Source: Promethearchaeota archaeon (GTDB lineage Archaea; Asgardarchaeota; Lokiarchaeia; Sigyniarchaeales; SOKP01). Taken from it: a DNA stretch of 53,361 bases. This document shows, one piece after another, positions 14,287-37,321 of this stretch. The stretch covers positions 1 to 53,361 of the forward strand of contig JAUWZR010000002.1 of NCBI GenBank assembly GCA_030615235.1. The letters run 5' to 3'. The notes under the pieces are model-generated. The model ran no database searches, was not told the DNA's origin, and saw only the letters and a program-made list of their open reading frames with translations. The stretch's first letter is position 1. Every line of letters begins with the position of its first letter. Made by a program: the position numbers and the translations under genes.

Positions 14287-14487
14287 TTCAAAACTAAGTG
14301 TAAGAGGTTCCCTAAGGAATTTAAATACAAACTACTTTATTAGATTTAACAAAAACTACTAATAGATGGAACAAAGAAATAAAAAAATTAAAAATCGAAA
14401 AAATATTTGTATCTTTATTATTGATATTTTATGATCTTATTTATCATTACGAAAACATAAATTATCAATTTCCTCCACAGATTAAAT

Positions 14488-14561
14488 GGGAGGGTGGTCT
14501 AGCTTGGTATGATTCCTGGTTTGGGACCAGGTGGCCGGGGGTTCGAATCCCCCCTCTCCCA
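14488..14561 (+). tRNA. tRNA-Pro (anticodon UGG), CCA not encoded
   Basis: Folded by hand. Acceptor stem GGGAGGG/CTCTCCC (one G-U pair), anticodon stem CCTGG/CCAGG with loop TTTGGGA (anticodon TGG, G37), T arm GGGGG-TTCGAAT-CCCCC, discriminator A, then a T-rich tract. Confidence 0.9.
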
Positions 14562-14644
14562 TTTTTACGATTTCTCTTAATTGAATTAGTTAAGCGACAT
14601 TAACATTAAAAAAAATAGGTAAATGACTCATAAATTAAAGAAAG

Positions 14645-17754: not shown

Positions 17755-20124
17755 TTATTTTAATCTTTTAAGATCATCATACAGATCAGTTCTTTTTGAA
17801 TTTTTGGGGATCTTTCTACTCAATAAGCATGAGTTTCTATTAGAATTTGTGATATTAACAAATTGTAGAAGTTTAGGATATAGATCTTCAGGATTAAACG
17901 AATAAGCCATATCTTTACTAAACCCTACACATAATAAATTATTGTTAATGTGGACACCATAATCTTCTAATCTATTCTTTAATAAAATACCATAAGCAGT
18001 GAGTTGTGGTAATGATCTATATATTTCATCCTCATCTTGTTTATAGTCAGCAATTATTAAGTATCCATTTATGAAAAGAATTATATCAATATGACCAATG
18101 TTAAATAAGTTTGAATTTTCAATAGGCTTCCAAACGGGGGATTCAATTGCTATAGTATTATTATCATTTGTTATTACATAAGCCAAAATAGGTGGATGGT
18201 CTGGTTTCTTGCCTATTCTATTTTTTTTATAATATTCAAAAACCTTTTGAACATATTTACACAAAAAAAAGGAAGAATCATATGCTTTTAATTCATCTTT
18301 AAAAAAATCTTTTATATATTCAAATTTTAAGTGCTCAGCATAAGAGCCATAAAATTTTAACATTGAGGCTCTGGGATTATCGTTAGACATGAATATATCA
18401 CGAGGAAAGTTTTCTCTCCAAAGATCATTAAGAAAGTTATAAAGCCCTAGTTTTAGTTGATCATTATTGATGATATTTAAGCGTTCTTCTTTCCATCTAA
18501 AAGGATATGTAATACTTTGATGTTTAAAATCCTTCCGCTTTAATTCTTGTATAGTATTAACCCAATCTATAAAGTATCTTTTATAATATTCTGTATGGTT
18601 TACTTTTATAAATTGACGAATTTTTTCAAATGTATTAGGGTCACTAAACGATGTTCTATTTCGAATTACACGTAATACCCCGCTGGTTCCAAGTATATTA
18701 TGAATAAATAATTTATTTCCAAATTCTTTTGGCTCCATATCTAAAGATTGATATAATTCAAGTAAAAATTGAGTCTCATTGTGATAAAATTCTTGTAATG
18801 ATTTTCTCATCATTTTAATAAAAGTTTCTCTACTATATATCTGCCCTTTATACCTTCCTATATAATCTGCTATATAATCATATAACCGATTGAAATTTTG
18901 ATCATTCACATGTCTAAAACTAAATTCAGACCCAAAACATTGTTCTAATTTCTTAGGAGTTGCTATATCTTCTAAACCACTTGTCTTTTTAAATGTGTAG
19001 TAAAGTAAAGAAAATGCAAAGTTCTGTGGAAAATAATAATCTATTTCGTTGTTTTTATTTATATCCAAAATTGGAAAATCGTTTACAATTGCACAATCAA
19101 AAATTGCCATTGCGTTTTCAATTGAATCACTTATATTAATTCTTAAATCAGGACTTAAAAAAGATTCTAATTTATTAACATATTGAGTTAAATAATTTTC
19201 TACTTTCTGTTGATATTTATCTTGTTCTAGAACAAAATATTCTAACATTATTTGATGTAAAACTTCAGTAAAATTAGTACACGGCATATTAAAGTTTTCA
19301 TTTTCAAGTAACAAATCAAGAAAGTCCGTCTTGTTCAATTTAAGATCTTTTTCATATTTCAAGAAAATAAAACACAAAACCGCTGCTAAAATTTTTGGCT
19401 TCTTTTTTTTCAAACTAATAAAAAAAGACTGAAATTTATTTTCTCCCTCAATTGAATCAATAATTTCCCAAAAGTCCTCGGAAATTTTTTCGGAATCACC
19501 CTCCGAAAAGTTAATGTCATTTAAATTTCTATTATTTAGATATTCAGCATATTTATGGATATATTTATTAGTTAATTCGAAATATTCATTCTCAGTTAAT
19601 TTGTCAGCATTTATTAACTCAAATATGAAATTATATTCGGGAATTCTTTTAAGATGGCTTGAAATTGTAGAACAAACGCTGTTTAAACTTGATAAGGATA
19701 AATTCAATATTTTGGCTAAATCTTTTCGGACCATATTTTCACCTAATCTAGCAAGGTTGAAATAAATCAAAGAAGCTGCTATATAAATGGGATTTTTTAC
19801 TTTTCTTGTCCCAAAACTCTTATAAAATTCATATAATGAGAGGAGGTTTAAAATATCCTCATATATCTTAATGCAATCTTCTTGAAAAGTCTTAGTTAGT
19901 TTGTATTTTAATTCAAAATTTAATTTATTTATGTGATCATCAAGATAAACAAAAATTTTATTCCAATACTTCCTAGTATCACTAACTTGGATTTTTTGCT
20001 TTAATTCATCTTTTTGAATTTCATTATTATCCCAAGATGATTCAGAACCGCATGAATTTATATCATCACGGCTAATTTTTGGTCGGTTCTTATCTGGACA
20101 ATTAAGGTTGCCTTTTTCTCTCAC
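17755..20124 (-). CDS. Large protein with helical (possibly TFIIB/cyclin-like) repeats and a C-terminal RecB/Cas4-type PD-(D/E)xK nuclease domain
   Basis: The C-terminus NIGHIDIILFINGYLIIADYKQDED...LPQLTAYGILL matches the RecB-family motifs GxhD, (D/E)YK and QxxxY. Three N-terminal segments resemble cyclin-box repeats, for example VKNPIYIAASLIYFNLARLGENMVRKDLAKILNLSLSSLNSV. GTG start. Confidence 0.55.
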   Translation of the reverse strand: MREKGNLNCPDKNRPKISRDDINSCGSESSWDNNEIQKDELKQKIQVSDTRKYWNKIFVYLDDHINKLNFELKYKLTKTFQEDCIKIYEDILNLLSLYEFYKSFGTRKVKNPIYIAASLIYFNLARLGENMVRKDLAKILNLSLSSLNSVCSTISSHLKRIPEYNFIFELINADKLTENEYFELTNKYIHKYAEYLNNRNLNDINFSEGDSEKISEDFWEIIDSIEGENKFQSFFISLKKKKPKILAAVLCFIFLKYEKDLKLNKTDFLDLLLENENFNMPCTNFTEVLHQIMLEYFVLEQDKYQQKVENYLTQYVNKLESFLSPDLRINISDSIENAMAIFDCAIVNDFPILDINKNNEIDYYFPQNFAFSLLYYTFKKTSGLEDIATPKKLEQCFGSEFSFRHVNDQNFNRLYDYIADYIGRYKGQIYSRETFIKMMRKSLQEFYHNETQFLLELYQSLDMEPKEFGNKLFIHNILGTSGVLRVIRNRTSFSDPNTFEKIRQFIKVNHTEYYKRYFIDWVNTIQELKRKDFKHQSITYPFRWKEERLNIINNDQLKLGLYNFLNDLWRENFPRDIFMSNDNPRASMLKFYGSYAEHLKFEYIKDFFKDELKAYDSSFFLCKYVQKVFEYYKKNRIGKKPDHPPILAYVITNDNNTIAIESPVWKPIENSNLFNIGHIDIILFINGYLIIADYKQDEDEIYRSLPQLTAYGILLKNRLEDYGVHINNNLLCVGFSKDMAYSFNPEDLYPKLLQFVNITNSNRNSCLLSRKIPKNSKRTDLYDDLKRLK

Positions 20125-20787: not shown

Positions 20788-23604
20788 TCAGGAATTTGAA
20801 GGAAAGATTAATTCCTTGAATTCCTTCGTGTCTTTAATATAATTTAATTTTGTATCCATATTTGCTGTTTCTTTATATTTCTCATTCAGTTCGATTGCTT
20901 TTTCTAATAATCTTAAAGCTTCTTTTTTATTATTTCTAAGGGATTCAATACAAGCTTTCTGATAATATATATTGTCATTATTTTTATCAAGTTTTAATAC
21001 TTGATTATAATATACCATGGCTTCATCGTATCTTTTTAATTCCTGCAACGCAACTCCTTTATTGACTAATGCTGAAATTTTATTTGGTTGAATTTCCAGT
21101 ACTTTTTCGAAATATTTGATCGATTCTTGATATCTCTCTAAGTCTATTAAAGCGCTACCTTTATTTACCATTGCATAAGTATTATACGGGTCAATCAACA
21201 TTGCTTTATCATAAAGATCTATTGCTTCCGCATATTTTTTTAACATAACTAAAACATTTCCTTTATTTACTAATGCATAAGTATTATTTGGATCAATTTC
21301 CAACGCTTTATCATAAAGATCTATTGCTTTTGCATATTTTTCTAATTTAGATAATGCTATTCCTTTATGAAATAATACAAAAGGTTCATTTGGATTAATC
21401 TCTAATGCTCTATCATAAAGAGCTATTGCTTTCTCATATCTCTCTAAATTTAAGAATATTTTACCTTTATTGACCAATACCATAGGATGATTAGGTATAA
21501 TCTCTAATGCTCTATCATAAAGAGCTATTGCTTCTTCATATCTTTTTAAATCAGACAATACATTTGCTTTATTAACTAGGGCTAAAAAATCATGCGGGTC
21601 AATTTCCAGAGCTTTTTCATTATAATCCATAGCCTCCTCGTATCTCCTTAATTCATACAATGCAATTCCTTTATTAGTTAATGCTCTTAGGTGATTTGGA
21701 ATAATCTCCAATGCTTTATCAAAATAAGTTATTGCCTTTTTGTATTTTTTTAAAGCATTTAATGCTGTCCCTTTATTGATTAATGCTTTGGGTTCATGAG
21801 AATTGATCTCCAATACCGTATCACAATTTTCTATTACTTCCCCATACCTCTTTAAGTTTATTAGGGAATTACTTTTATTAACTAGTGTTTCAATATCATA
21901 AGGATTAATATTCAATATTTTGTCATAATTTTCTATTTCCTGTTCGAATTTTCCTAAAGCTGATAACGCGATCCCTTTATTAAAAAACGCTTCAGTTTTA
22001 TATGGGTCAATTTTTAAAGTTTTATCATAATACTCAATTGCTTTTTGAATTTTTTTCAACTTATATAACGCAATACCTTTATTAACTAATATATCAGTAT
22101 TATTCTGGTCTAATCTTAATGCTTTATCCCAACATATTATTGCTTCTTTATAAAGTTCTAATTTTGATAATGCTACTCCTTTATTAATTAATATTTCAAT
22201 CTTATTTGGATTAATATTTAATACTTGATCAAAATATTCTATTGCTTTTTTATGACTCCCTACGTCAGATAAGACAATTCCAATGTTGAATAATGTATCT
22301 GTGTCATTCGGATTAATCTCTAAAGCTTTGTTAAAACATTCTATTGCCTCTTGATATCTTCCTAAATAAGCTAATGAATTTGCTTTATTGAATAAAATTT
22401 CAAAAATATGAGGGGTAATCTCTAATATTTCATCATAGTATTTCATTGCCTCTTCAAACTCTCCAAAATAAAAGGAAAGATTTGCATTAGAACTTAGAGA
22501 TTCTATCCTCTCTGTTACACTCACATGTATTTTTTTAATAGTTTCTTCTTCTAAATTTTGAATTATGGGTTCTAATTGAGGTTCTTCAAAGATTTTAAGA
22601 GAATTCCATTTAATATCCTCCCTACTCTCCCATTTTGGTTGAGTTGGATTCGAATAAAAAATTTTACGGAAAGCAATCCTAAATTCTTTATTAATTTTTA
22701 TAATAGAAAAATTATTTTGATAATATGAACCCTTATAGGATGCACCTCCAATATAGAGATAAGCTCGATTTTTAATTCGATCCGCCTCATCTATAAGTTC
22801 ATTATGAAAATGACCAGATAAAATAATATGGCTTCTTTTTGCCAATTCGCTATATGTAGCGATTCTTTTAGGATTACTTTTTTTTTCAAATTCATGCAGA
22901 TCATCTTTAGGATGATGCATTACAATAATACTGAGTTCTTTAGTATTATAATCTTTTTTTGTAATAATTTGATTAGATTTTATTAAGATTTGAAGTAAAG
23001 GTAACCCAATCCATAATTTACCTTTACATTGATCATTATAAGCGTACCATGCAGAATTAAACACTATAAATCTAATTCCAGAAATGATTTTTTTTCCAAC
23101 TAGATAATTCTTATAATTTCCAATAATCAAGGGTGTTATACCTAAATCTTTTTTGAAATTGATAAAAGGTCTAAAAAGTGGTTCAAATTGCTTAAGTTTT
23201 TCTAATTTTAAATAATCATCAGCCTGTTCATAAGAACTTGGTGGTATTGCGATAATTTTATCCCTATCAATATCATGATTACCGGAGGATATAATTATGT
23301 TTTCAGGTCTAATATTTGTGATTTTCATTAACTTTAATAACCACTCTTTTGCTAATTTATAATCTGCGATTTTTCCCGCCCAGGCTATATCCCCAGAAAT
23401 TACAATAATTTGGGGTTTCCAAAAATCATCGATTTTTTCTAAAGAATTTAATAATTTATTTAGTTCATTTTCTCTTTCTGCATACTTCGTTTGATTTTTT
23501 CTTAGAATTTCATTACGATTAAAATGCAAATCTGAGATGTGAAGTATATTTATACAAGATTCTTTATATCTACTGAATTTCTGTTTTATTATTTCTTCAT
23601 TCAT
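20788..23604 (-). CDS. Calcineurin-like metallophosphoesterase fused to about 16 TPR repeats
   Basis: MPE motifs ILHISDLHF, VISGDIAWAG, SSGNHD, VMHHP and LSGHFH are in the first about 330 aa. About 16 units of 34 aa follow (xLxNKGxALxxLxxYxEAIxxYDKALEIxPN). There is no P-loop. Confidence 0.8.
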   Translation of the reverse strand: MNEEIIKQKFSRYKESCINILHISDLHFNRNEILRKNQTKYAERENELNKLLNSLEKIDDFWKPQIIVISGDIAWAGKIADYKLAKEWLLKLMKITNIRPENIIISSGNHDIDRDKIIAIPPSSYEQADDYLKLEKLKQFEPLFRPFINFKKDLGITPLIIGNYKNYLVGKKIISGIRFIVFNSAWYAYNDQCKGKLWIGLPLLQILIKSNQIITKKDYNTKELSIIVMHHPKDDLHEFEKKSNPKRIATYSELAKRSHIILSGHFHNELIDEADRIKNRAYLYIGGASYKGSYYQNNFSIIKINKEFRIAFRKIFYSNPTQPKWESREDIKWNSLKIFEEPQLEPIIQNLEEETIKKIHVSVTERIESLSSNANLSFYFGEFEEAMKYYDEILEITPHIFEILFNKANSLAYLGRYQEAIECFNKALEINPNDTDTLFNIGIVLSDVGSHKKAIEYFDQVLNINPNKIEILINKGVALSKLELYKEAIICWDKALRLDQNNTDILVNKGIALYKLKKIQKAIEYYDKTLKIDPYKTEAFFNKGIALSALGKFEQEIENYDKILNINPYDIETLVNKSNSLINLKRYGEVIENCDTVLEINSHEPKALINKGTALNALKKYKKAITYFDKALEIIPNHLRALTNKGIALYELRRYEEAMDYNEKALEIDPHDFLALVNKANVLSDLKRYEEAIALYDRALEIIPNHPMVLVNKGKIFLNLERYEKAIALYDRALEINPNEPFVLFHKGIALSKLEKYAKAIDLYDKALEIDPNNTYALVNKGNVLVMLKKYAEAIDLYDKAMLIDPYNTYAMVNKGSALIDLERYQESIKYFEKVLEIQPNKISALVNKGVALQELKRYDEAMVYYNQVLKLDKNNDNIYYQKACIESLRNNKKEALRLLEKAIELNEKYKETANMDTKLNYIKDTKEFKELIFPSNS
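20800..22480 (-). repeat. 102-nt periodic coding repeats (TPR array), with some neighbouring units nearly identical
   Basis: Near-duplicate runs are visible, for example ctctaatgctctatcataaagagctattgc at about 21401 and about 21503. These correspond to RYE(E/K)AIALYDRALEI units. Confidence 0.8.
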
Positions 23605-24156: not shown

Positions 24157-24417
24157 TTATTCTTTTGAAAAATCTTCTAAGGTCCTGCATTTATATGGAA
24201 ATTCTAACTTATTTTCGCAGTTATTACATTCTATTTGAATTTCACAAAACGAAGGATCATTAATGTGTCCAAAAAACTTTACAGAGCAGTCTTTTCCACA
24301 TTCTGAACATTGGAAATCAATATAATCGCTTGGAGAATCGGTAATAAAAAATCTTACTCTACCAGCTGGATTTTCATTTTCTAAATAATTTCTAAGAGCA
24401 TTATGTTCATTAGACAT
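24157..24417 (-). CDS. Small Cys-rich zinc-ribbon protein (86 aa)
   Basis: CSECGKDC...C...C and CNNCENK provide paired CxxC motifs. It lies 263 nt downstream of, and co-oriented with, the NLR-like gene. Confidence 0.45.
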   Translation of the reverse strand: MSNEHNALRNYLENENPAGRVRFFITDSPSDYIDFQCSECGKDCSVKFFGHINDPSFCEIQIECNNCENKLEFPYKCRTLEDFSKE

Positions 24418-24680: not shown

Positions 24681-27600
24681 TCATTCAATTTTGTTTAATG
24701 AATCTGGGATTGAGCAATTTGGAGCTACCTTAATAATATAAAATTTTGGATTTAATAAAGTTAAATAATCATCTAATGAAATCTCAATCTCCTTATCTGT
24801 ATAGATTCTTAAATCAATGTCATTTTCTTTAATTTTTTTAAGATCTTCTGGTAAAATTCTTAATTCTGGAAGCTCAACCCATAAGTGTGTTAAATTGAAT
24901 AACTCATGGAGGAAATTTGGAAATTTGCAATTAGTTTTTACCTTAATTTTGAAAGTACAAATATCTTTTGGATTCCAAAAATCATTTGAAAACTCTATAA
25001 ATTTGTCAGTTATGACCAGTTGCTGGATTTGCTTGAAATGTATTAAATATCTTGGTATTTGGTCAATAAGCTCTGTATTTACCTCAAGATATAATAAGTT
25101 TCTACATTCTTGGACAAAATTAGGTATAAAATTATTATCATCAATTCTAATATGAGTTATTTTATCGAAATTACTCTCTAATAAATCAAAAAATCTACTT
25201 ATTCTTGAACCTGAAACTCTTAAATGAGCAATATTTTGAGTATTTGAAAATTGTATAGGTTTTCTATGCGAGATCGAAATTTCCATGCGATTATTTTTAT
25301 TATCTTCCCAAAAATTTTCTTGGAAATCTTGAGAACCCCCGAATGAAATATGTAGACACTTTATTTTTGGAAGGTTTTTAATTAATTCTGGAATTTTATC
25401 TAATGGAGGATTTATCCAACGTATATAAGATAAATTTTTAAGATTCTCCCAAGATTTTGGTAAGTCTTTTGCTGCTATATCAATTATTTGAAGATGTGTT
25501 ATATTTTCTAATTTATTAAGCGATTCACTTAATATGCATCTTTTATTTACTCTAAGTTCTAATCTATACTTAGTATCTTCACTTCCAAATTCCCCTGTTA
25601 ATCCGGTTAACGTAATCGATGTTATCAATAGTTGAGTAAATTGAGATAAATTACCAAAAAAGTTAGGTAGCTCTGTTAATTGAGGAAGATTAATTCGAAG
25701 ATGCGTTATATTTTTCATTGAAATTTCGTCTTTGGGTAATTTACAATCATTTCTTACTCTTGCTAAAAATATACCCTTATTCGAATTATTAAGAAAGTCT
25801 TCATTAGAAGTAGGTAGAGGATCTTCTGAAATAAGCATTTTTTTAATATAAGGTGATAAAAATACCCAAGCTTTTAAATTAGTAACAAATGGGAAATCTA
25901 TTCTTAGATGGGTTAAATTCTCGAAATTACCTATTATATCCGGTAAAATGCTTTGGCCTCTTGAAAATCCGAATAAATATATTCCTTTACCAGAGATTTT
26001 CCAATAGTTTATTTTTTTAAAGAATTCTTTTGTAAGATTTTCTTGATTGGTGATTAGAAGCTTATTTAATACGCCATTAATAGATACATTTTTTGGGAAT
26101 CTAGTAAGTACCTTAATCCATACTTTTTCAATATGAGAAGGAATAGTTAACTCATTTAATATAAATTGTGTAGGGAGGTTAACTAATATTCGAGAACTGT
26201 CTAATTGGTTTTGAGCCATATAATCTTTGATATCTTCTAGATTTTGAGATATATTAATTAAAATGTTCGGAAACATATCCCATTTAAATACAATATCCGG
26301 TAAAATATTTGATATTTGAGAATTGATGATTACCTCGTTTAACTTAGAGCAAGATTTTAGACTTTCAGGAAAATTAAATTTAAAGAAATTTTCTATATAA
26401 ATTGATTCAAGATTCTTTAATAAAGAAATTGATTCATGCAGATTAAGTACAAATTGATGACCTTTTCCTTGAATATCAATTATTTTTAAATTTTTGATTG
26501 TAGTACTTTTCCCAAATTTAATTAATTCTCCCTTAAGTTCTAAAGATTCTAATTCTTCTAAGGACCAAAATAAATCTTTAAATTCAAAATAGTTTTGCAT
26601 TTCAAATATATTCAATAAACTCTTTGGTATTTGTAATGTTAAAGAACTAATATACTCATTAGAAATTGTAACCCAATAAGTATATTCACCAGAATAATCC
26701 TTTAAATGATTTAAATAATCAATAATGACAGCATCCTTAATTTTTAAATGAATTTTTTCCAGTTTCGGCGTTAATTGCCCTCTAATTTCTATTTCATCAT
26801 CTACAATTAGTAAATTATCGTCAACATAATTGATGGATGGTAATGTTTGCTTTTTTGGGTAAAATGAAATATATGTATTTCTCATTAAATTGATAAATTT
26901 AAGATTCTTGAACTCATGCCACCATGAGTTAATTGATTTTATATTGTTATATTGAATATTTATTCTAAATAACCTGTCTAAATTTGTTAAAGTATCTGGA
27001 AGTTCTTTCAATTCATTATGGTCTAAATTTAGAACTTCTAAATTTTTTAATCTACCAATATCTTTAGGAAGTTTTGGTAATTCATTATCTTGAAGAGCTA
27101 ACTTCTTTAAACCTATTAATTTATAAACCCCTTTGGGGATATGTTTTGTTTTTATATGATCTAGGTATAATTCCGATACACGATCATTTATATCAATTAC
27201 ATAACCTTGACTTCTCTTTATTTCTTCAAAATCTGAAAGATTTCTTAGTCTGTGATTTCCTATTTCAACTTCAATTTCTCCTAATGAATTTGCATCGGAT
27301 TTACAAATTTCAAATTCTTGAAATCTTTGTTTCAATTTAGAACTATAGTGTTCAATAAAACCTTGGTATTCTTCTTGAAAGAAATATTTAAATTGTGTTT
27401 TTGTTTTATCCATTTTTATAATACCACTAGAATAGATTACATCCCAACTTCCTTTTTTGTTATATCGAAATTCACTAAGCTCATTATCAAGAATGGGAGT
27501 ATAAGGATCCGCAATTATACTTACTAAATCTTTGAAATCATTTTCTACAGTACCCACAATTCCCATCCTGTTCAAAATAGTATTTTCATTTTGGCGACTT

Positions 27601-29561
27601 TCGAAAAGATTATACCAATCATCTTTAGATGGATTAAATTTTTTTTCGATGATATCTACATTACTTTCGGAGATTATTTTGATGATAAAGGGTTTCATTA
27701 ATAATTTCTTAACGAGCTTATCCTTAATCTTCTCATAGTTTATCCCATAATTTTCATTGATCTTTTTTAATCGTGCTAAATCTTTAATATCTGAAAGAAT
27801 ATAACTAGTACCAGTAGGAATTTCAGTATCTTCGAAGTTATTGAATTTATCATTTTGAAAAATATACCGTTTAAATTTTCTATAATTTCTGATTATTTCT
27901 TTAGAATTTATCCAATCTACTAACCTTGATGTCAATAATATAATTAAGTGCTCATAGTTCTTGTCTAATTCAATCATATCACAGAGATTGTTTAGAAACT
28001 CTCCTCTCTCGTCTTCAGTTAATTCCTCAAAACCATCAAAGATTAGTAAGACATTTCTTTTTTGTCCCTCTTTGAATGCAATTAATCTAGTTATCTTGCA
28101 TAAATCTTTATTAAAACCTCCTAATATATTTTCAAACCGATCTTCATATGAGCGAAGATGAAAATAAAAAGTTGGGATTTTTCTCTGCTTGATATATTCA
28201 AATGCGAGATATGATGCATTCCATGTTTTTCCCAATCCCATGTATCCTAGTAATAAAAAAATTCTATTTTTTTCCTGAGGATTCTTAAGGTTTCTAAAAA
28301 AATTTTCAAAAAAATGCTCAAGATCTGGGTTTTTTTCAAAGAGATCTAAATTGAATCTAGTTTCGAACCTTGAAGCTAGATCTACTAATTCTAACTGTTG
28401 TAAACAATAATTAAGCAAAGTTTCATCTTCAAATTCAATTATTTCATTTTGATTTTTCGCTCTTAATCTCCATAAAGGCATTTTAAAATTTTCAATAGTA
28501 AAATCAATCTGACTCCTCCAATTTATAATTTTTGGGTTCATAATCTCTAATTTCGAAATCAGGCGTGAACTTATAACATCAAAAAATGAAGGATTTTTTT
28601 CATAATAACCCTTAAGTAAACTTAATGTTTGAAATAATTTATCGAAAATTTTTTCTTTTTGAATAGTATTATCTTCAAAAAAATTATCTATCTCTGCAAT
28701 AATTTGAGAAACAATTTCTCTCAGATCGGTAAGTCTGATTTTATTAATTAATTCTTCTCTATTTGAGTCTTTTAGCTTAATTTGAAGGAACTTGTCTAAA
28801 TAATCATATAAGCTATTAATAAAAAGTTTGATATTATCTAAATTCATAGTAATTATGAAAGTTAAAGCCCACTCTATGATATCTCGAATATTTTTATCAA
28901 ATTCTTCAAGAAATGCTTGTTCTAAATTTGTATTAAGAAAATCTTCTAAACCCTTCTCAATTGTCTTCGAATCCTCAAAAAACATTTTATAATCATCTTC
29001 AACTATATCACTCTGTAATTTATACCTTCTTAAAGCATTTTTAAATGCATTTTCAATTTTGTCATTAGAGCAAAAAACTTCATAAAAACCTTCTGAAAAG
29101 GTAATTGCGTCATTATCATAAACTTTCCTTTTTGTTCCTATCGAGCAAGGCAAATATTCAGAGACTCTCTTTGCAATCTTTAAAGATTCACAAGAATTAA
29201 AAATTATAATTTTAATGATTTGTTCAAAATCTTTGAGGACACCAATAGTTTCTTCAAAAAGAAACTGAGAGCCATAACTTTTCTCAAAATGAATATCATC
29301 TTCAAAATAAAATCCACTAGATTGTTCACCATGTCCAGCAAAATGGATCATTTGAGGTTGATATCGTGAGATACATTCAAAAAATTCATTTCTTTCGGTG
29401 GCAAAAGCAGATTCAAGATAAATAAATTCACGAAATGGTGACTTTTCAATTATTTTCTTAATTGTCTTGAATTCTTTATCAATACGAGTCTTAACTGTAC
29501 TTTCTTTGAAATTTGCGGAAAGAAATAAAATGGTAAATTTCTTCTTTTTTAATCCTAACAT
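24681..29561 (-). CDS. NLR-architecture STAND protein: N-terminal caspase/CHAT-like domain, NACHT P-loop NTPase, long LRR region (1626 aa)
   Basis: His-Cys dyad context MIHFAGHG ... IIIFNSCES (aa about 70-130). Walker A LLLGYMGLGKTW (nt about 28221-28262). NACHT-type Walker B LLIFDGFEEL (nt about 28023-28052). Canonical LRRs LKKLALQDNELPKLPKDIGRLKNLEVLNLDHNELKELPDTLTNLDRL (nt about 26930-27130). Irregular LRR-like units with N(I/L)THL(R/Q)I continue to the C-terminus. Confidence 0.75.
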   Translation of the reverse strand: MLGLKKKKFTILFLSANFKESTVKTRIDKEFKTIKKIIEKSPFREFIYLESAFATERNEFFECISRYQPQMIHFAGHGEQSSGFYFEDDIHFEKSYGSQFLFEETIGVLKDFEQIIKIIIFNSCESLKIAKRVSEYLPCSIGTKRKVYDNDAITFSEGFYEVFCSNDKIENAFKNALRRYKLQSDIVEDDYKMFFEDSKTIEKGLEDFLNTNLEQAFLEEFDKNIRDIIEWALTFIITMNLDNIKLFINSLYDYLDKFLQIKLKDSNREELINKIRLTDLREIVSQIIAEIDNFFEDNTIQKEKIFDKLFQTLSLLKGYYEKNPSFFDVISSRLISKLEIMNPKIINWRSQIDFTIENFKMPLWRLRAKNQNEIIEFEDETLLNYCLQQLELVDLASRFETRFNLDLFEKNPDLEHFFENFFRNLKNPQEKNRIFLLLGYMGLGKTWNASYLAFEYIKQRKIPTFYFHLRSYEDRFENILGGFNKDLCKITRLIAFKEGQKRNVLLIFDGFEELTEDERGEFLNNLCDMIELDKNYEHLIILLTSRLVDWINSKEIIRNYRKFKRYIFQNDKFNNFEDTEIPTGTSYILSDIKDLARLKKINENYGINYEKIKDKLVKKLLMKPFIIKIISESNVDIIEKKFNPSKDDWYNLFESRQNENTILNRMGIVGTVENDFKDLVSIIADPYTPILDNELSEFRYNKKGSWDVIYSSGIIKMDKTKTQFKYFFQEEYQGFIEHYSSKLKQRFQEFEICKSDANSLGEIEVEIGNHRLRNLSDFEEIKRSQGYVIDINDRVSELYLDHIKTKHIPKGVYKLIGLKKLALQDNELPKLPKDIGRLKNLEVLNLDHNELKELPDTLTNLDRLFRINIQYNNIKSINSWWHEFKNLKFINLMRNTYISFYPKKQTLPSINYVDDNLLIVDDEIEIRGQLTPKLEKIHLKIKDAVIIDYLNHLKDYSGEYTYWVTISNEYISSLTLQIPKSLLNIFEMQNYFEFKDLFWSLEELESLELKGELIKFGKSTTIKNLKIIDIQGKGHQFVLNLHESISLLKNLESIYIENFFKFNFPESLKSCSKLNEVIINSQISNILPDIVFKWDMFPNILINISQNLEDIKDYMAQNQLDSSRILVNLPTQFILNELTIPSHIEKVWIKVLTRFPKNVSINGVLNKLLITNQENLTKEFFKKINYWKISGKGIYLFGFSRGQSILPDIIGNFENLTHLRIDFPFVTNLKAWVFLSPYIKKMLISEDPLPTSNEDFLNNSNKGIFLARVRNDCKLPKDEISMKNITHLRINLPQLTELPNFFGNLSQFTQLLITSITLTGLTGEFGSEDTKYRLELRVNKRCILSESLNKLENITHLQIIDIAAKDLPKSWENLKNLSYIRWINPPLDKIPELIKNLPKIKCLHISFGGSQDFQENFWEDNKNNRMEISISHRKPIQFSNTQNIAHLRVSGSRISRFFDLLESNFDKITHIRIDDNNFIPNFVQECRNLLYLEVNTELIDQIPRYLIHFKQIQQLVITDKFIEFSNDFWNPKDICTFKIKVKTNCKFPNFLHELFNLTHLWVELPELRILPEDLKKIKENDIDLRIYTDKEIEISLDDYLTLLNPKFYIIKVAPNCSIPDSLNKIE

Positions 29562-30069: not shown

Positions 30070-31008
30070 CTAAAGAATAATTCTTATTTTTTTTATGGTG
30101 TAAAAGTATAGTGCGATTGTGTTAATTCCTATGTCTAAACATACTAGATAATAATAATAATCCCATAATGATTCTATGTCTAATACTTCATTATAAGTCT
30201 GTTTTCCATTGCGATTAAAATCTAATATTTGTATTTTGTTTATATGTGATTTTATAATAATGCATTTTTCATGATGTGCAATAGCATTTCTTACATGAAT
30301 TAATGAGAATAATAAATCTCTTATTAATTGGGGCGGTGTTTTTTTATTATTATTTTTTAGTTGAAAAATGTCGTATATATTATTTCTATACCTACTACTT
30401 TTTTTATTTCCTTCGTATTTAGATAATTCCACTCCCAAGTATTCACACCTTCCAAGAAATATGCCATAATAATTTTTATATGTTTCCTTAAAGCGTAGAA
30501 CTTTTTTATAAGGATCTTCTACTGGGTTCTCAAGTAAGTATCTTAAATTTTCTTCTTTTGTTAAATATTTGTTTTCCTTAAATAAAGATATTGTTGAGTC
30601 TTTATTTATAACAGGATAATTAGTAGCAATTTTTGCAAAGAAAATAAGAGGAATTTCACTTTCATAAGGAAGTATTCTATTCTTAAGATATTTAAACCAT
30701 TTTTGGTTTAATTGATAGGTTTTATTATTACAACAATCTGCTTTATATAAGATTTTATAGAGTAATAATCTTGCTGTTAGACTAGCTATTAAATGATAAC
30801 CATTAAATTGATTATAATTTTTAGGGTGTATAAGAAGATCCCAAAAATAATATTTTGTAAGTTTTTCATCTATACTTTTATTAATTAATATACTTAATTC
30901 TTTTGTTAATTTTTTTATAAATTTAGATATATCTTTTTTATATTTTACAGGATCCAAAAATCTATTATAAAAATCAAATGGATTTATCGATTTCATTAAA
31001 TTACTCAT
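30070..31008 (-). CDS. Hypothetical protein with a C-terminal HEPN-type Rx4H motif (candidate RNase/Abi-like)
   Basis: LLFSLIHVRNAIAHHE contains RNAIAH, which fits the HEPN consensus R(N)xxxH. The rest of the protein is not recognised. Confidence 0.4.
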   Translation of the reverse strand: MSNLMKSINPFDFYNRFLDPVKYKKDISKFIKKLTKELSILINKSIDEKLTKYYFWDLLIHPKNYNQFNGYHLIASLTARLLLYKILYKADCCNNKTYQLNQKWFKYLKNRILPYESEIPLIFFAKIATNYPVINKDSTISLFKENKYLTKEENLRYLLENPVEDPYKKVLRFKETYKNYYGIFLGRCEYLGVELSKYEGNKKSSRYRNNIYDIFQLKNNNKKTPPQLIRDLLFSLIHVRNAIAHHEKCIIIKSHINKIQILDFNRNGKQTYNEVLDIESLWDYYYYLVCLDIGINTIALYFYTIKKIRIIL

Positions 31009-31106: not shown

Positions 31107-31730
31107 TTAATATAGTAAGTTTACACCCTGGGGATCGCATTTATGTAACATGTTTTTCCTAATAATGACTTCTCCCTCGATTGGAGTACTGATAGAAAAA
31201 CAATCAGCGGGGCATTCTTTTGAAATTTTATAATAATCTTGGATGTGATTCCTTTCTCTTACTGTTAAGCATAATTGGCAAATTTTATTTTCCTTATCTT
31301 CAGTACAATTATCAAAATCGATTTCATAGAATTTCTCTAAAGTTGGAAATTCATCCATAACAATTTGTCCTTCTGGCTCAATATTTTCATGGAACGCATC
31401 GGTGGGGCAAACAACGACACATAGCATACAATAACAACATTTATCGTGATCAATAAAAAGTTTAGGGTTTGAATCGTCCAATATATTTTGGGCAATTTCT
31501 GGGATTGGTCCAAGTTCTATGGCGTCGACCGGGCAGACAAGTTTACATAAACTACACCCAATACATTTTTTAATATCGTACGTTAGTTTCTTCTTAACAT
31601 CCTTATATTGCCAATTTAAAATTAAATGATCTTGACTAATCTCGAGGTCTTTCTCGATTTTATCTTCTTTAATTTCTTTTTCTGAGAAGGTTTTGGAAAT
31701 TCTAAGATTACCTCTTAAAAAATCTAAATT
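31107..31730 (-). pseudogene. Truncated, start-less paralog of the polyferredoxin gene (equivalent to residues 1 to about 206 of the 364-aa copy)
   Basis: The tracked ORF 31107-31481 matches residues about 85-205 of the 15757-16851 product. The same frame stays open upstream and reads NLDFLRGNLRISKTFSEK...LNWQYKDVKKKLTYDIKKCIGCSLCKLVCPVDAIELGPIPEIAQNILDDSNP. The position of the Met codon is GAT, and no canonical start occurs before TTG at 31481. Homology ends abruptly at ...NMLHKCDPQGVNLLY*. Confidence 0.7.
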
Positions 31731-32190: not shown

Positions 32191-33720
32191 TTGTCAAATT
32201 CAGTTAAAAAATCGAGAATTTCAGAGAAAATGTTTAACTCTCTCTTTAAAAGTATCCCTTTTCCTTCGTATGTTTGGAAAATAGTTGAAAATAATTTAAT
32301 TTTGATTGAGTATAACACTTCAGCTGAAAAAATAACTAATGGTCAAATTATAAATGATTTAGGAAGAAAAGCATCAGATATTTATAAAGATCAATCCGAG
32401 TTTTATGAAGGACTTAGTCGATGCACCTCCTCTAAATGTAGAGTTTCTAAAGAAATTAAAACTGTTTGTATGACTACTGGAGAAGAAATTTATATCTCGG
32501 TTGAATATAGTCATATTCCTCCTGATTTAGTTTTAGTTCATACTGAAGATATTACGGAACGGAAGAATACAGAACAAAAATTGAAAGATTCCGAAGAAAA
32601 ATATAAAGATATGGCCGAACTTTTACCAGATATTATCTATGAGATTGATAAAAGTGGAAAGTTTACTTATGTTAATCCTGCGGGTTATGAAAAATTTGGT
32701 TATCAAAAAGATGAAGTTATAGGAAAAATGAGTATGATTCAAGCTGTTCTACCTGAACAAAGAGAAAAATTAATCAGAAACGCAAAAAGATTCTTTTCAG
32801 GGGAATTAATTGAGCCAGGTATTTATACCTTTCAAAAAAAAGATGGATCTACTTTTTTTGGGAGGTTACATTCACGACCTATCTATAAAGAAGGAAAGAT
32901 TGTAGGGATAAGGGGAGTACTTCATGATATTCATAAATTAATTGAAATTGAAGAAAGATTAAAAAAATTAAATTTGGAGTTAGAACAAAGAGCTGAGGAA
33001 AGGACAAATCAGTTGTGGAAAGCATCGGAAGATTATCGATTACTGGTAGACCACGCGCCTGTAGGAGTATTCTTAGCAGATCAGGAAGGAAACATTAAGT
33101 TAGTTAATCCTCAATTATTGAGAATCCTTGGTTCACCATCTGCTGAGGCCACAAAACAAATTAATCTTTTAACCTTCCCGTTATTAAAAAAGGCTGGTAT
33201 CTCGGCAGCAGTCGAACAGTGCCTTGAGAAGAAAGAATCAAATATCAGTGAATTCTTCTATACATCAAAATGGGGGAAAGATTTTTGTGGCAGATTATAT
33301 CTAAACCCTGCTCGCGATACTTCCAATCAAATAATTGGTATACAAGGTATTGTTGAAGATATTACCGAGTATAAAAAAATTGAGCAAAAAATCAGAGAAT
33401 CTGAAGAGCAATATCGAACTATGATAAATTCTTTAGCCGATCCTCTAGAAGTCGTAGACAGAGATTTAAAGATTCTTCTGATCAATCCCGCCTTTGAATC
33501 TTGGCTCGAAGATTTAGGTATTGAAAAGGATGTTGTAGGCCGAACTATTTTCGAAGCGTTTCCATTCTTATCAAGTGAAATTCGCAAGGAATATAAGCAA
33601 ATTTTCGATACTGGAGAAATTCAATTTACTGAAGGGAGCACATTTGTAGATGGTAAAGAAATCATTACTGAAACGCGTAGAATTCCAATTTTTAAGGAAG
33701 GTCATGTTAATCAGGTTTAG
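32191..33720 (+). CDS. Multi-PAS sensor segment; probably the N-terminal part of a frameshifted giant histidine kinase
   Basis: About four PAS units are separated by the typical linkers DITERKNTEQKLKDSEEKY and DITEYKKIEQKIRESEEQY. The ORF ends inside a PAS domain (IPIFKEGHVNQV*) with no output domain. Confidence 0.7.
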   Translation: MSNSVKKSRISEKMFNSLFKSIPFPSYVWKIVENNLILIEYNTSAEKITNGQIINDLGRKASDIYKDQSEFYEGLSRCTSSKCRVSKEIKTVCMTTGEEIYISVEYSHIPPDLVLVHTEDITERKNTEQKLKDSEEKYKDMAELLPDIIYEIDKSGKFTYVNPAGYEKFGYQKDEVIGKMSMIQAVLPEQREKLIRNAKRFFSGELIEPGIYTFQKKDGSTFFGRLHSRPIYKEGKIVGIRGVLHDIHKLIEIEERLKKLNLELEQRAEERTNQLWKASEDYRLLVDHAPVGVFLADQEGNIKLVNPQLLRILGSPSAEATKQINLLTFPLLKKAGISAAVEQCLEKKESNISEFFYTSKWGKDFCGRLYLNPARDTSNQIIGIQGIVEDITEYKKIEQKIRESEEQYRTMINSLADPLEVVDRDLKILLINPAFESWLEDLGIEKDVVGRTIFEAFPFLSSEIRKEYKQIFDTGEIQFTEGSTFVDGKEIITETRRIPIFKEGHVNQV

Positions 33721-33758
33721 TTATTACGAGAGATATTACTGAGCGAAAAGGTGCAGAA

Positions 33759-36700
33759 ATGAAAATAAAAGAGTCAGAAGAAAGATTGAGTGCTTTTATA
33801 AACTCAGCGCCTGATAGTATTTTTATTTGGGATTCGGAGCTCAATTTAGTTGATTGCAATAAAAATGGTTTCAATATGATATCTATGGGGCAAAATAGAG
33901 AAGATTTAATTGGTCAAAATATACTAGAAATTGCTCCAGATGTTAAGGAGAAAGGTAGATATGATAAATATATGGAAGTATTAAAAACTGGAAAACCATT
34001 TTATATAGATGGTGTTGTTCCACACCCTAAATTTGGAGATATTATAATATCTATAAGAACTTTCAAAGTAGGTGAAATGTTTGGAATGATTACTACAGAT
34101 ATCACCAAACGCAAAAAAGCAGAACAAGAATTAATTGAATCAGAAGAAAATTATCGGCTTCTCACAGAAAATATTAATGATCTAATCGTTGTTATAAATA
34201 CTAGATTTCAAATTGAATATGTTAATGAAGAAGTCGTTAAGAAAATAATAGGTAATACAAAAAAAGATATATTAGGAAAGAATATTTTGGATTTTGTGCA
34301 TCCCGATGATAAAGTAATGGCTCTTAATTCGCTACTGAAGGGTATTAAAGATAAAGAAGGAATAGAGGAAATGAGAGTAGCGAATCTAAAAGGTCAATAT
34401 ATTTGGTTTGAAGTAAAAGGAGGGGCCTTTATAAATAATAAAGGAGAATTAAAAGGAATATTAATTGCAAGAGATATTACAGAGCGTAAACAAGCAGAAC
34501 AAAAGCTTCGAGAGAGTGAAGAGCGGTACCGTACTTTGGTTGAGACTATGACTGATGGGTTAGCAGTTATAGATGAGAATAATTACTTTACCTATGTTAA
34601 TATAAGTTTTAGCAAGATGATTGGATATTCGTATGATGAGCTTCTTAATACACATCTCTTCAATTATCTTGATAAAAAAAATCAAAGTATAGTAGAAGAG
34701 CAGTTAATTGAGCGTAGAAAAGGAGAAGCACAACCTTATGAGCTTGTATGGACTAGGAAAGATAGACAAAAAGTTTATACGATTTTAGCCCCAAAACCGC
34801 TTATTGATGCAGAGGGAAATTATATTGGAAGCTTCGGTGTTATCACCAACATAACTGAACGTATAATAACTGGGAAAAAAATAAAAGAATCTGAAGCGAA
34901 ATATCGCAATTTATTTGAAAGTTCTCCCAATATGATTGTTTTATTAAACCTGAATGGAAAGATAATTGATGTGAATCCAGCAACACTTACAAAATATGGA
35001 TTTGAAAGAAAAGATTTTATAGATAAGGATTTTAAAGAGCTAAATAATTATCTACCGGGTAATTTACCGCTTTTAGCAAAGAAATTTAAAAAACTATTAA
35101 CTAAAGGTGTCTTGGAACCTATCGAACTTCCATTCCATACAAAAGACAGAAATATCATTTGGGTTAATCTGCAAGGATCGTTAGTAAAGATTGGTGGTGA
35201 AACATATATTCAAACAGTAATACAAGATATTAACGAGCGGAAAGAAGCAGAATTAAAAATAAAAGAATCAGAGGAGAAAGTAAAAACATTAAATGACACT
35301 TTTCTAGAATTCACAGATGATCCCTTTAAAAATATACAATTGCTTGTCGACGCAGCAGGTAAGCTGCTTATGAGTGATTGTGCCGCGTATAATAAAATAA
35401 TTGAGGTAAACGGTAATAAAATATTAAAAACAATCGCAATTTGGCAAGAACCACCAAATTACGAACGGGAGGATAATCCAATTGGGCATATTTGTACTGA
35501 TATAATCAACATGAATCGTGAGGATGTTACGATAATAAAGGATTTAGATATGACTAAATATGTGAAAACTGATCCAAATGTTCAAAAATATAGATTAAAA
35601 CAATATTGTGGTATTGCAGTAAAACTAAATAATGAGCCAGTTGCTTCCTTTTGTGTAATATATAAGGAAAACCGAGAAATAAGTGAAGTTGATAAAGATA
35701 TAATACGAATTTTGGCTCAATCTGCATCGATTGAAGAACAAAGGTTATATTCTTATCAAAAAATAAAAGATTCCGAAATTAAATTTAAATTGATTTTTGA
35801 ATCCATTCCAGATCTTTTTTTCTTAATACACAAAGATACAACCATTTTAGACTTTAGGGGAAGAGAAGAAGATCTCTATGTTCCGTCAGAGAAATTAATT
35901 AACCATAAATTAAGAGATTTGGTTCCAAAAGACATTGGTGATCTTCATTATATTGCTACTAAAAAAACATTATTAACAAAACAACCTCAGATAATAGAAT
36001 ATGGATTATCAATACGTGATGTTTATAGACATTTTGAGGCGCGTCATCTTTATTTTTCTGAAGATCAAGTAGCTGTGTTTGTACGAGAAATCACTGCTAG
36101 TAAAAAAGCAGAACAAGAATTAATTGAATCTGAAGAAAAATATAGACAATTGTTTGAGAATTCACCAGAAATAATTTTGTTAGCCAATCCAGACGGAGTA
36201 GTTTTAGAATATAATTCTGCTGCTGAAAAAGCATTTGGATTTAGAAAAGACGAAGTAATTGGACGATATTATTATGAATTTGGAGTCTTTGATTCAGATC
36301 AAATTTCCATAATAGAGAAGAGATATAAAGAAACATTGAGAGTAAAACAAAAAAAGTTTGAGGAGTTTAAAGTTAAACGGAAAGATGGGAGTTCATTTTG
36401 GATTTTATATCAGAGTACTATTGTTAAATTAGGAAATAAACCATATATTCTTACTTTAGCACAAGATATCTCCGAAATAAAGAAAGCAGAAAAATTAATT
36501 GAAGAAGAACTTATTAAACTAAAAAAATTAGATGATATCAAAAATGAATTGATTACAAGAGCTTCGCACGAATTTAAGACACCATTAACTTCTATCTTAG
36601 CTTCAGCAGAATTATTTTTAAACTTATTTAAAGGTGTTTATACTGAGGAAATGAAACAACTCATTGAAATCATCTATGAAGGAGGAAAGAGATTAGAAAA

Positions 36701-37226
36701 TTTGGTCAAAAAAACAATAGATATTTCGCTTATTGAGTCAGAAAGCATATCTTTTAGGAGGGAAAGAGAGGATATTGGGAAACTTATTAATAAATGCGTG
36801 AATGATTTGATATATTTAGCTGATAAAAGAGAACTGTCATTAGAACTTAATGTTCAAGAGAACATATTTATTCAAATTGATAAAAATAAAATTACAGAAG
36901 TAATAAAAAATATCCTATCCAACGCAATAAAAAACACTCCTCAAAAAGGAATTATTTCCATAAGCTTAAAGAGAATGAAGAAACATTTAGAGATCTCAAT
37001 AAAAGATACAGGTGTAGGATTTACTGAAATTGAATTACAAAGAATTTTTCAAAAATTTGGAAAAATTGAAAGATACGGCAAAGATTTCGATGTTGATATA
37101 GATGGTCCAGGACTTGGATTATATCTAGCAAAACAATTTATTGAAATGCATGGAGGAAATATTTGGGCAGAATCCAAAGGATTAAATAAGGGAGCAACTT
37201 TTACGATTGAATTACCAATTAATTAA
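33759..37226 (+). CDS. Multi-PAS/GAF histidine kinase (C-terminal part; the frame is open from 33711)
   Basis: Repeated PAS units with DIT(E/K)RK linkers, a GAF-like segment (aa about 520-660), the H-box LITRASHEFKTPLTSI, and HATPase_c motifs NAIKNTP, IKDTGVGF and GPGLGLYLAKQFIEMHGGNIW. Upstream of the ATG the frame reads SGLVITRDITERKGAE, the end of a PAS domain. Confidence 0.8.
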   Translation: MKIKESEERLSAFINSAPDSIFIWDSELNLVDCNKNGFNMISMGQNREDLIGQNILEIAPDVKEKGRYDKYMEVLKTGKPFYIDGVVPHPKFGDIIISIRTFKVGEMFGMITTDITKRKKAEQELIESEENYRLLTENINDLIVVINTRFQIEYVNEEVVKKIIGNTKKDILGKNILDFVHPDDKVMALNSLLKGIKDKEGIEEMRVANLKGQYIWFEVKGGAFINNKGELKGILIARDITERKQAEQKLRESEERYRTLVETMTDGLAVIDENNYFTYVNISFSKMIGYSYDELLNTHLFNYLDKKNQSIVEEQLIERRKGEAQPYELVWTRKDRQKVYTILAPKPLIDAEGNYIGSFGVITNITERIITGKKIKESEAKYRNLFESSPNMIVLLNLNGKIIDVNPATLTKYGFERKDFIDKDFKELNNYLPGNLPLLAKKFKKLLTKGVLEPIELPFHTKDRNIIWVNLQGSLVKIGGETYIQTVIQDINERKEAELKIKESEEKVKTLNDTFLEFTDDPFKNIQLLVDAAGKLLMSDCAAYNKIIEVNGNKILKTIAIWQEPPNYEREDNPIGHICTDIINMNREDVTIIKDLDMTKYVKTDPNVQKYRLKQYCGIAVKLNNEPVASFCVIYKENREISEVDKDIIRILAQSASIEEQRLYSYQKIKDSEIKFKLIFESIPDLFFLIHKDTTILDFRGREEDLYVPSEKLINHKLRDLVPKDIGDLHYIATKKTLLTKQPQIIEYGLSIRDVYRHFEARHLYFSEDQVAVFVREITASKKAEQELIESEEKYRQLFENSPEIILLANPDGVVLEYNSAAEKAFGFRKDEVIGRYYYEFGVFDSDQISIIEKRYKETLRVKQKKFEEFKVKRKDGSSFWILYQSTIVKLGNKPYILTLAQDISEIKKAEKLIEEELIKLKKLDDIKNELITRASHEFKTPLTSILASAELFLNLFKGVYTEEMKQLIEIIYEGGKRLENLVKKTIDISLIESESISFRREREDIGKLINKCVNDLIYLADKRELSLELNVQENIFIQIDKNKITEVIKNILSNAIKNTPQKGIISISLKRMKKHLEISIKDTGVGFTEIELQRIFQKFGKIERYGKDFDVDIDGPGLGLYLAKQFIEMHGGNIWAESKGLNKGATFTIELPIN

Positions 37227-37321
37227 ATAAGAGGTGGAAGCATTAATTATTGACGATATTCATAAATTTACAGATAATTATTAGTTAGAAAAATAACTTT
37301 AATTTCAAAAGTAATTTCTTA

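Follow-up and report, generated by a model that had tools for sequence, protein, structure and literature searches.

A 53,361-nt stretch of DNA from a Promethearchaeota archaeon (contig JAUWZR010000002.1 of assembly GCA_030615235.1, positions 1 to 53,361; hereafter the window) carries a gene for a protein of 1626 amino acids (aa) that is predicted to join in one chain (i) a caspase-like protease of the CHAT family, (ii) an ATP switch of the NLR type with a NACHT-class nucleoside triphosphatase (NTPase), and (iii) a leucine-rich-repeat (LRR) sensor. The gene is real and adds a member, not named before, to the NLR-like defence proteins already known from prokaryotes. By analogy with the bacterial NACHT/Avs proteins and with SAVED-CHAT, on which this functional reading rests, the protein is probably a cytosolic single-polypeptide NLR-like sensor that serves abortive infection or cell death. 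The evidence for the three domains is presented first, followed by the family and its genomic setting, the proposed function with its alternatives, and the relation to known systems.

Domain architecture of the CHAT-NACHT-LRR protein

The open reading frame (ORF) is uninterrupted, with an ATG start, 1626 codons, and a single terminal stop, and an intact frame of such length is notable in DNA with a G+C content of ~26% around the gene. The highest Kyte-Doolittle mean over 19 residues is 1.16, and no membrane-spanning segment is predicted. Because its hydrophobic stretches are too short to cross a membrane, the protein is read as soluble, and transmembrane anchoring is ruled out. All of the motifs quoted by a first-pass annotation, made from the letters of the window, are present in the translation, i.e., MIHFAGHG (aa 71-78), IIIFNSCES (aa 118-126), GLGKT (aa 442-446), and LLIFDGFEE (aa 505-513), with ILLTSR (aa 541-546) as an additional NTPase motif. 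The order effector, NTPase, LRR, which the same annotation had proposed, is upheld after each domain call was tested by profiles, alignment, or, for CHAT, a structural model. Its guess of an Asgard source likewise finds support. The closest genome match is a metagenome-assembled genome (MAG), Promethearchaeota archaeon 33X4 (L005), that harbors a syntenic, gap-free orthologue of the same length (1626 aa, 84% identical); Promethearchaeum syntrophicum MK-D1 also has a homologue, and the Promethearchaeota are placed in the kingdom Promethearchaeati.

For the N-terminal domain, a profile built from it and its nearest homologues (three sequences) matches SAVED-CHAT in the Protein Data Bank (PDB entry 8TL0) with E=5.6e-15 over 171 residues, and the PADLOC SAVED_CHAT model matches the single sequence at 8e-6. 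In the 8TL0 alignment, HFaGHG lies over HFIGHG and iifNsC over VVLNAC, with the Cys of LNAC opposite Cys124. The His/Cys dyad context recognized in the first-pass annotation stands, while its spacing of “about 48” residues becomes 47 (His77 to Cys124); the aligned His and Cys of 8TL0 are likewise 47 residues apart. In SAVED-CHAT, H375 and C422 make up the catalytic dyad, and the H375A/C422A double mutant is dead (10.1101/2023.06.23.546230).

An AlphaFold (AF2) model of the domain, built from a 41-sequence alignment, has a predicted local distance difference test score (pLDDT) of 87.4 and a predicted template modelling score (pTM) of 0.87. Foldseek ranks the 8tl0 SAVED-CHAT filament first among PDB structures (E=1e-13, template modelling (TM) score 0.75-0.78), followed by legumain, separase, caspases-1/3/6/7/9/11, and MALT1. 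The domain belongs to a very large group of proteins. An exhaustive search of 1.84 billion cluster representatives finds 11,366 relatives at E<=1e-3, and Pfam CHAT (PF12770, clan CD) is present in 47 of the 56 best representative relatives. A word-indexed search returns 59 proteins, nearly all with PF12770, of which the named ones are cyanobacterial. Metallophos domains occur in two of the 56 closest CHAT relatives. Together, the 8TL0 profile match, the modelled fold, and the aligned, conserved dyad are at odds with a non-protease fold, and none was obtained. The domain is therefore assigned, from sequence and model, as a predicted cysteine protease of the CHAT family whose His77/Cys124 dyad is intact and conserved.

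A catalytically dead CHAT domain would act differently, as a scaffold or adaptor that recruits another effector in the manner of animal CARD/death-fold domains. This is very unlikely, even though the Pfam CHAT score stays below its cut-off, the domain has a length of only ~190 aa and covers positions 109-266 of a model with 289, and its ratio of nonsynonymous to synonymous divergence (dN/dS) relative to the L005 orthologue, 0.60, is the highest within the protein. The 41-sequence alignment shows no variation at His73, Gly76, His77, Asn122, or Cys124, Gly78 is kept in >=90% of that alignment and in the L005 orthologue, and every retrieved family member (about 12, 35-50% identical) has intact HF.GHG and FN.C motifs. 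Moreover, the dyad aligns residue by residue with the experimentally proven dyad of SAVED-CHAT, and there is no conserved partner gene available for recruitment.

Between protease and NTPase lies a linker (aa 196-412) that is kept in the MK-D1 homologue, which is devoid of CHAT. AF2 places helices of this region ahead of NTPase strand 1, and its Pfam matches are all insignificant. The NTPase itself carries an invariant Walker A motif, which includes Lys445, and a Walker B motif of the form D[GAS]hDE, the signature by which the NACHT clade is defined (bioRxiv 10.1101/2022.07.19.500537). The window protein reads D509-G-F-E-E513 at this position, and all other family members read DGFDE. The hhhTSR strand typical of classical NACHTs is also present in the family (LLTSR in the window protein). 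Pfam NPHP3_N, a NACHT-type model, scores 26.7 bits with a cut-off of 24.8, mainly over the Walker B region, and family members P0006 and P0009 are likewise above this cut-off. The nSTAND3, nSTAND5, and AAA Pfam models remain below theirs.

When the family NTPase profile is compared with a bacterial NACHT profile by hhalign, the two match at 97.9% (E=5.4e-13), and the 205 aligned columns start before Walker A and extend to the helical “KPFI/RPVM” motif. The bacterial sequences were recruited via the shared Walker B pattern, which somewhat inflates the comparison, although the alignment far exceeds the nine-residue pattern. Against the single NACHT protein P0008, the family profile scores a weak 17%, so that the link to NACHT is convincing from profile to profile and not from profile to single protein. 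PDB sequence searches with the family NTPase profile and with the bacterial NACHT profile return zero chains, so that these searches give no ranking of NLR relatives. A genome-wide pattern scan confirmed by tblastn detects out-of-family NTPase relatives in cyanobacteria, Streptomyces, and Acidobacteria; those scanned with Pfam combine NACHT with NNH5 or NA-iREase1 and with WD40, pentapeptide, or FGE-sulfatase sensors. An AF2 model of aa 364-783 (6-sequence alignment) gives a P-loop alpha/beta core with a pLDDT of ~80 and low values for the rest. The region that follows the core is the most conserved of the protein: residues 580-780 are 91% identical to the L005 orthologue, with a dN/dS of 0.11, and the family NTPase alignment is likewise strongly conserved there. 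Given the motifs and the profile-profile match, the earlier call of a NACHT-type STAND NTPase holds, and the module did not group with a non-STAND family. It is filed under the NACHT clade on sequence grounds, with the winged-helix part presumed.

The sensor is less uniform than had been described. Within aa 781-920, LRR_8 (E=2.1e-14), LRR_14 (E=7.9e-13), LRR_4, and LRR_1 all match, with a core at aa ~790-900 and three strict LxxLxLxxNxL units. In aa 1231-1626, LRR_14 is found at E=2.8e-9, its 36.6 bits lying under the 40-bit cut-off, and there are four relaxed LxxLxLx4LxxLP units where 0.2 are expected and where 500 shuffles yield two at most. Six copies of the marker [NK][IL][TA]H[LI] lie in aa 1215-1556, and the relaxed units coincide with N(I/L)THL markers. 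The intervening aa 921-1230 are conserved in all full-length family members. Because these ~310 residues match no profile, the initial figure of “more than 800 aa of LRRs” is overstated; the part that stands is the ~540 aa with LRR evidence.

One segment of the sensor, aa 1201-1340, departs from the remainder of the gene, being 54-74% identical to the L005 orthologue where most other parts are 82-96% identical. Its nonsynonymous divergence (dN) is 0.26 and its synonymous divergence (dS) 0.70, compared to a dS of ~0.2 over the remaining gene. This pattern looks like a recombined or mosaic repeat cassette rather than point-wise positive selection.

A large protein with many LRR-type repeats could also be a ROCO-like or other housekeeping LRR protein whose resemblance to NLRs is due to chance, and NCBI indeed names the MK-D1 homologue “leucine-rich repeat domain-containing protein”. 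The probability of this explanation is close to nil, as Pfam and NCBIfam reveal no Roc/Ras-type GTPase or COR domain, the effector-NTPase-LRR order is opposite to LRR-Roc-COR, and the NACHT signature motifs are present. In addition, the gene is rare among the matches listed and its synteny is kept only between two close genomes. The ROCO-like candidate, which the first-pass annotation had itself raised as an outcome that would overturn its proposal, is rejected.

Family, genomic island, and probable exchange between lineages

The collection scans are pattern-based, and all family counts are lower bounds. The family comprises at least about 12 sequences, which among the matches listed come from Promethearchaeota genomes and sediment metagenomes only; among those matches, two of the GTDB species genomes scanned carry it, in addition to a handful of sediment-metagenome contigs. 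Besides the 33X4 orthologue, the full architecture is found in P0003, P0006, P0009, and P0019. Seven metagenome loci (LAZR01, SDBS/SDBU/SDBV, and Ga0114925 contigs) belong to the family, and all of these further members are 35-50% identical to the window protein. The homologue of MK-D1 (L001/L006, CP042905.2, ~2.31 Mb) has 1083 aa and starts past the CHAT domain, in place of which it has a short hydrophobic N-terminus. On the metagenome contig L004 (10001-14451), the gene is split into 662 aa (CHAT-NACHT) and 761 aa (repeats) with ~180 nt between them, which may reflect pseudogenization, an error in sequencing, or a true variant with two genes. In proteins P0008 and P0073, a CHAT domain closely related to that of the family accompanies a textbook Pfam NACHT, and the C-terminus is of another kind; thus, the fusion of protease and NACHT is not unique to this family. 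Carriage by viruses was considered and rejected: IMG/VR viral contigs hold no relative among the matches listed, and PHROGs give nothing meaningful for the island ORFs.

The gene diverges far less between the two genomes than its surroundings do. Relative to L005, its dS is 0.26 (dN/dS 0.30), and that of a 789-aa gene of the same island is 0.31. For six syntenic genes outside the island dS reaches 1.5-2.0 (dN/dS 0.07-0.21), such that the NLR gene lies about six-fold under its flanks. Low island values between flanks of dS 1.5-2.0 point to exchange between lineages long after their divergence, and most simply the island genes would have undergone recent horizontal exchange, or recombination, between two diverged Promethearchaeota lineages. 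Patchy, rare, apparently exchanged, with one split copy and a mosaic cassette, the NLR gene is an accessory gene in a variable, defence-flavoured island.

The island spans ~14.5 kb and is flanked by a 300-nt direct repeat of 73% identity (16502-16801 and 31381-31680). At these ends, a 124-aa Fer4 ORF (31107-31481) duplicates in part, with 71% identity, aa 84-202 of a 364-aa ferredoxin-like gene (15757-16851), and the pair of copies flanks the island in L005 too. There is no integrase and no sharp mobile-element end around the gene, the diverged partial ferredoxin-gene duplicate being the sole bounding repeat. The only tRNA gene of the window lies ~2 kb beyond the island boundary.

Comparison of neighbour genes across 11 family loci reveals none that is conserved, and the gene is accordingly viewed as a stand-alone single-gene system. 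The individual neighbours are nonetheless often of defence type (Table 1). In the window, the 938-aa Metallophos-TPR gene is absent from L005, whereas the 789-aa gene, whose product has no PDB relative, is retained alongside the NLR gene in both genomes. Also missing from L005 is the 312-aa ORF immediately upstream, which has no profile or PDB match; a 442-aa DUF4062 (TIR-like) gene takes its position there, and a gene related to the latter adjoins P0009. The 86-aa Cys-rich ORF has no homologue in other family loci. The MK-D1 homologue is accompanied by a RE_NgoFVII/PLD/helicase gene (restriction-like), a TIR-LRR protein, and ParE, and the split gene of L004 by Schlafen/AlbA_2 and DUF4365 genes. 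The MK-D1 TIR-LRR protein is encoded 0.9 kb downstream of the homologue, and its LRRs resemble those of the family.

A protease-activated gasdermin system was rejected, as no gasdermin or cleavable-toxin gene sits next to the protease and no neighbour is kept across family loci; the 86-aa and 312-aa ORFs have no Pfam, PADLOC, PHROG, or PDB match except for a ZZ-like signal (0.009) in the former. A ~9-kb block of PAS/histidine-kinase genes borders the island in the window and is without counterpart in the otherwise syntenic L005 contig, which argues that it is not linked to the NLR gene.

Table 1. Features of the CHAT-NACHT-LRR gene and its surroundings, in window positions
Feature	Position	Strand	Basis or remarks
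Complete CHAT-NACHT-LRR gene, 1626 aa	24681..29561	-	ORF list and translation
CHAT (caspase-hemoglobinase fold) cysteine-protease domain, aa ~9-195	28977..29537	-	Profile, AF2, Foldseek
Codon of His77, predicted catalytic His, second His of HFAGHG	29331..29333	-	Alignment to 8tl0
Codon of Cys124, predicted catalytic Cys, in FNSC	29190..29192	-	Alignment to 8tl0
Helical linker/pre-NACHT region, aa 196-412	28326..28976	-	Family alignment, Pfam, AF2
NACHT-clade STAND NTPase core and first helical domain, aa ~413-641	27639..28325	-	Pfam, hhalign, AF2
Walker A GYMGLGKT, aa 439-446, Lys445	28224..28247	-	Motif; invariant across family
Walker B LLIFDGFEE, aa 505-513	28023..28049	-	NACHT-type D[GAS]hDE form
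Most conserved segment, aa 642-780, presumed winged-helix/helical STAND part	27222..27638	-	Conservation; AF2 pLDDT <50
Canonical LRR block, aa 781-920	26802..27221	-	Pfam LRR models
Conserved region without profile match, aa 921-1230, LRR-like by eye	25872..26801	-	Pfam scan
Irregular LRR-like repeats with N(I/L)THL marker, aa 1231-1626	24684..25871	-	LRR_14, unit count
Divergent cassette within sensor, aa 1201-1340	25542..25961	-	Comparison with L005 orthologue
Metallophos and ~12 TPRs, 938 aa, two genes downstream, same strand	20788-23604	-	PADLOC candidate PDC-S60, 8e-24
789-aa protein	17755-20124	-	Weak C-terminal PD-(D/E)XK, Cas4-like, and exonuclease signals, aa ~652-733
312-aa ORF directly upstream of NLR gene	30070-31008	-	RNAIAHH, HEPN-type Rx4H motif seen in Abi-like RNases
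86-aa Cys-rich ORF with CxxC pairs, immediately downstream of NLR gene	24157-24417	-	Weak ZZ-finger-like match, 0.009
Three large PAS/GAF histidine-kinase-type genes (509, 1155, 732 aa), ~9-kb block	32191-39520		
tRNA-Pro (TGG)	14487-14562	+	

Proposed function and its alternatives

As an immune sensor, the protein would at rest have its NTPase kept closed by the repeat region. Binding of a foreign molecule (from a virus or mobile element) or of a perturbed host molecule to the repeats would release the NACHT module, which may then bind a nucleoside triphosphate and oligomerize. Oligomerization would gather the CHAT domains and order their active sites, and the activated protease would cleave cellular or invader proteins, with the outcome that the infected cell arrests growth or dies (abortive infection). 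Activation of this kind has precedents: SAVED-CHAT assembles into filaments in which the CHAT domains become ordered and the dyad is aligned (10.1101/2023.06.23.546230); phage defence is known for bacterial NACHT proteins that have an effector at the N-terminus and LRRs at the C-terminus (bioRxiv 10.1101/2022.07.19.500537); and bacteria also have Apaf-1-like STANDs that carry a caspase-like protease at the N-terminus (PMC13581612).

Several observations weigh against the immune-sensor reading, either in its domain assignments or in its biological setting. On the sequence of this protein alone, both Pfam CHAT (PF12770, 17 bits, cut-off 24) and Pfam NACHT (PF05729, 16.2 bits, cut-off 26.7) fall short. 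The helical/winged-helix half of the STAND module is modelled with a pLDDT <50, and Foldseek with the aa 364-783 model returns generic ORC/Cdc6/RFC AAA+ structures only (TM 0.2-0.3) and no NLRs, so that this model does not separate NACHT from other STAND/AAA+ classes. Within the sensor, aa 921-1230 have no Pfam match at E<=1 besides noise and zero relaxed LRR units, and a dN/dS of 0.27-0.31, below that of the CHAT domain, shows that the sensor is not globally hypervariable. In PADLOC-DB v2, SAVED_CHAT is the sole match to the protein, with no NLR, Avs, or NACHT model at E<=1. The family can exist without its protease, as in MK-D1. Lastly, the defence-type neighbours at four independent loci are suggestive, being candidates rather than proven systems.

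The same architecture could instead be a regulated protease switch outside immunity, active in development, stress-induced death, or the sensing of a syntrophic partner. The CHAT protein HetF, for example, reportedly takes part in cyanobacterial heterocyst differentiation. CHAT domains are very widespread (the 11,366 representative clusters), many of them in non-defence architectures, no known defence hidden Markov model covers the whole protein, the sensor is without overall diversifying selection, and PAS/histidine-kinase signalling genes abound in the neighbouring block of the window. That block, however, is missing from the sister genome, and the patchy, rare distribution among the matches listed, the apparent recent exchange relative to flanking genes, the split copy, and the defence-type neighbours at four independent loci all speak against this alternative; a non-immune switch is considered unlikely.

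The first-pass annotation had also suggested relevance to the origin of eukaryotic cell-death signalling, i.e., a vertically inherited archaeal forerunner of the NLR-plus-caspase axis. The host lineage belongs to the archaea closest to eukaryotes, the protein has the same three module types as animal inflammasomes, and a survey groups some Asgard NACHT proteins with eukaryotic ones (PMC11291487). Vertical descent is nevertheless highly improbable for this family. Its named close CHAT relatives are cyanobacterial, its nearest NACHT relatives among the matches listed are cyanobacterial, actinobacterial, and acidobacterial, and a search with its NTPase profile at a threshold as loose as E=10 brings up none of the solved animal NLRs. 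The family has the behaviour of an accessory gene that was exchanged recently, and it is confined among the matches listed to Promethearchaeota and sediment metagenomes. Animal caspases, furthermore, are recruited via death-fold adaptors and not fused to NLRs, and CHAT is a branch of the caspase fold distinct from the C14 caspases. Thus, nothing here favours vertical descent, and the pointers, bacterial-type relatives and recent horizontal exchange, lead elsewhere.

A more far-reaching version of the immune reading views the protein as a one-polypeptide inflammasome, found among the matches listed only in Promethearchaeota, in which NACHT oligomerization directly activates the fused protease and which is encoded by a mobile Asgard immune gene. 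In this complete form it has little probability. If it were true and the NACHT module were sister to eukaryotic NLRs rather than nested among bacterial clades, the logic that links NLRs to caspase-fold proteases would have its first candidate origin in an archaeal host.

Relation to known systems

Prokaryotic immunity includes NLR-like STAND sensors with effectors as an established class, and bacteria are known to have versions that bear a protease. The closest counterparts in overall design are the bNACHT proteins (Kibby et al., bioRxiv 10.1101/2022.07.19.500537), such as the LRR-bearing bNACHT16, in which one gene likewise encodes effector, NACHT, and repeat sensor. The D[GAS]hDE Walker B motif and a defence-island-type context are common to both. 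The window protein differs in that its effector is a CHAT protease, and its host is an Asgard archaeon; its NACHT is also very divergent, with the Pfam NACHT score below cut-off and no PADLOC model on the NTPase.

Among solved proteins, SAVED-CHAT (8TL0; type III-B CRISPR/CBASS-like; 10.1101/2023.06.23.546230) comes closest to the N-terminal domain in both structure and sequence. Both have the same His...Cys dyad at the same 47-residue spacing, and SAVED-CHAT is activated by an oligomerization that orders the active site. Its switch is a SAVED domain that binds cyclic triadenylate (cA3) and its protease is C-terminal, whereas the window protein carries its protease at the N-terminus and has a NACHT NTPase with LRRs as its switch. 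The substrate of SAVED-CHAT, PCaspase, is encoded in the same operon; here no partner is encoded.

Direct fusion of a caspase-fold protease to a STAND module with a repeat sensor, in the logic of a one-protein apoptosome or inflammasome, is shared with the bacterial caspase-STAND systems described by Kaur et al. and in PMC13581612. Those fusions are mostly of the AP-ATPase/Apaf-1 type with WD40 or TPR sensors and occur in multicellular bacteria, while the present one is of NACHT type, has LRRs, and comes from an archaeon. Animal inflammasomes (NLRC4/NAIP, NLRP3 with caspase-1) likewise couple a NACHT and LRR sensor-switch to a caspase-fold output, presumably through oligomerization-induced proximity. 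They employ a separate C14 caspase via CARD/PYD adaptors, as opposed to a CHAT-branch protease fused to the NTPase, and solved animal NLRs have no detectable sequence similarity to this family.

Within the Asgardarchaeota, the nearest precedent is the set of “NLR” defence systems of Leao et al. 2024 (PMC11291487), which are likewise NACHT-type single-protein systems. The survey relied on defence-finder models that already existed, neither CHAT nor caspase effectors appear in its text (0 occurrences), and the literature searched contains no paper with both “Asgard” and “CHAT domain”. To this set the present gene adds a well-defined Asgard family of at least about a dozen members that current defence-finder models overlook. 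The family offers a compact, testable model in which NACHT oligomerization would activate a caspase-fold protease without adaptors, and an entry point to archaeal virus sensing, a field with very little knowledge. Viewed beside its bacterial, animal, and Asgard counterparts, the protein is a good experimental candidate rather than a conceptual surprise.

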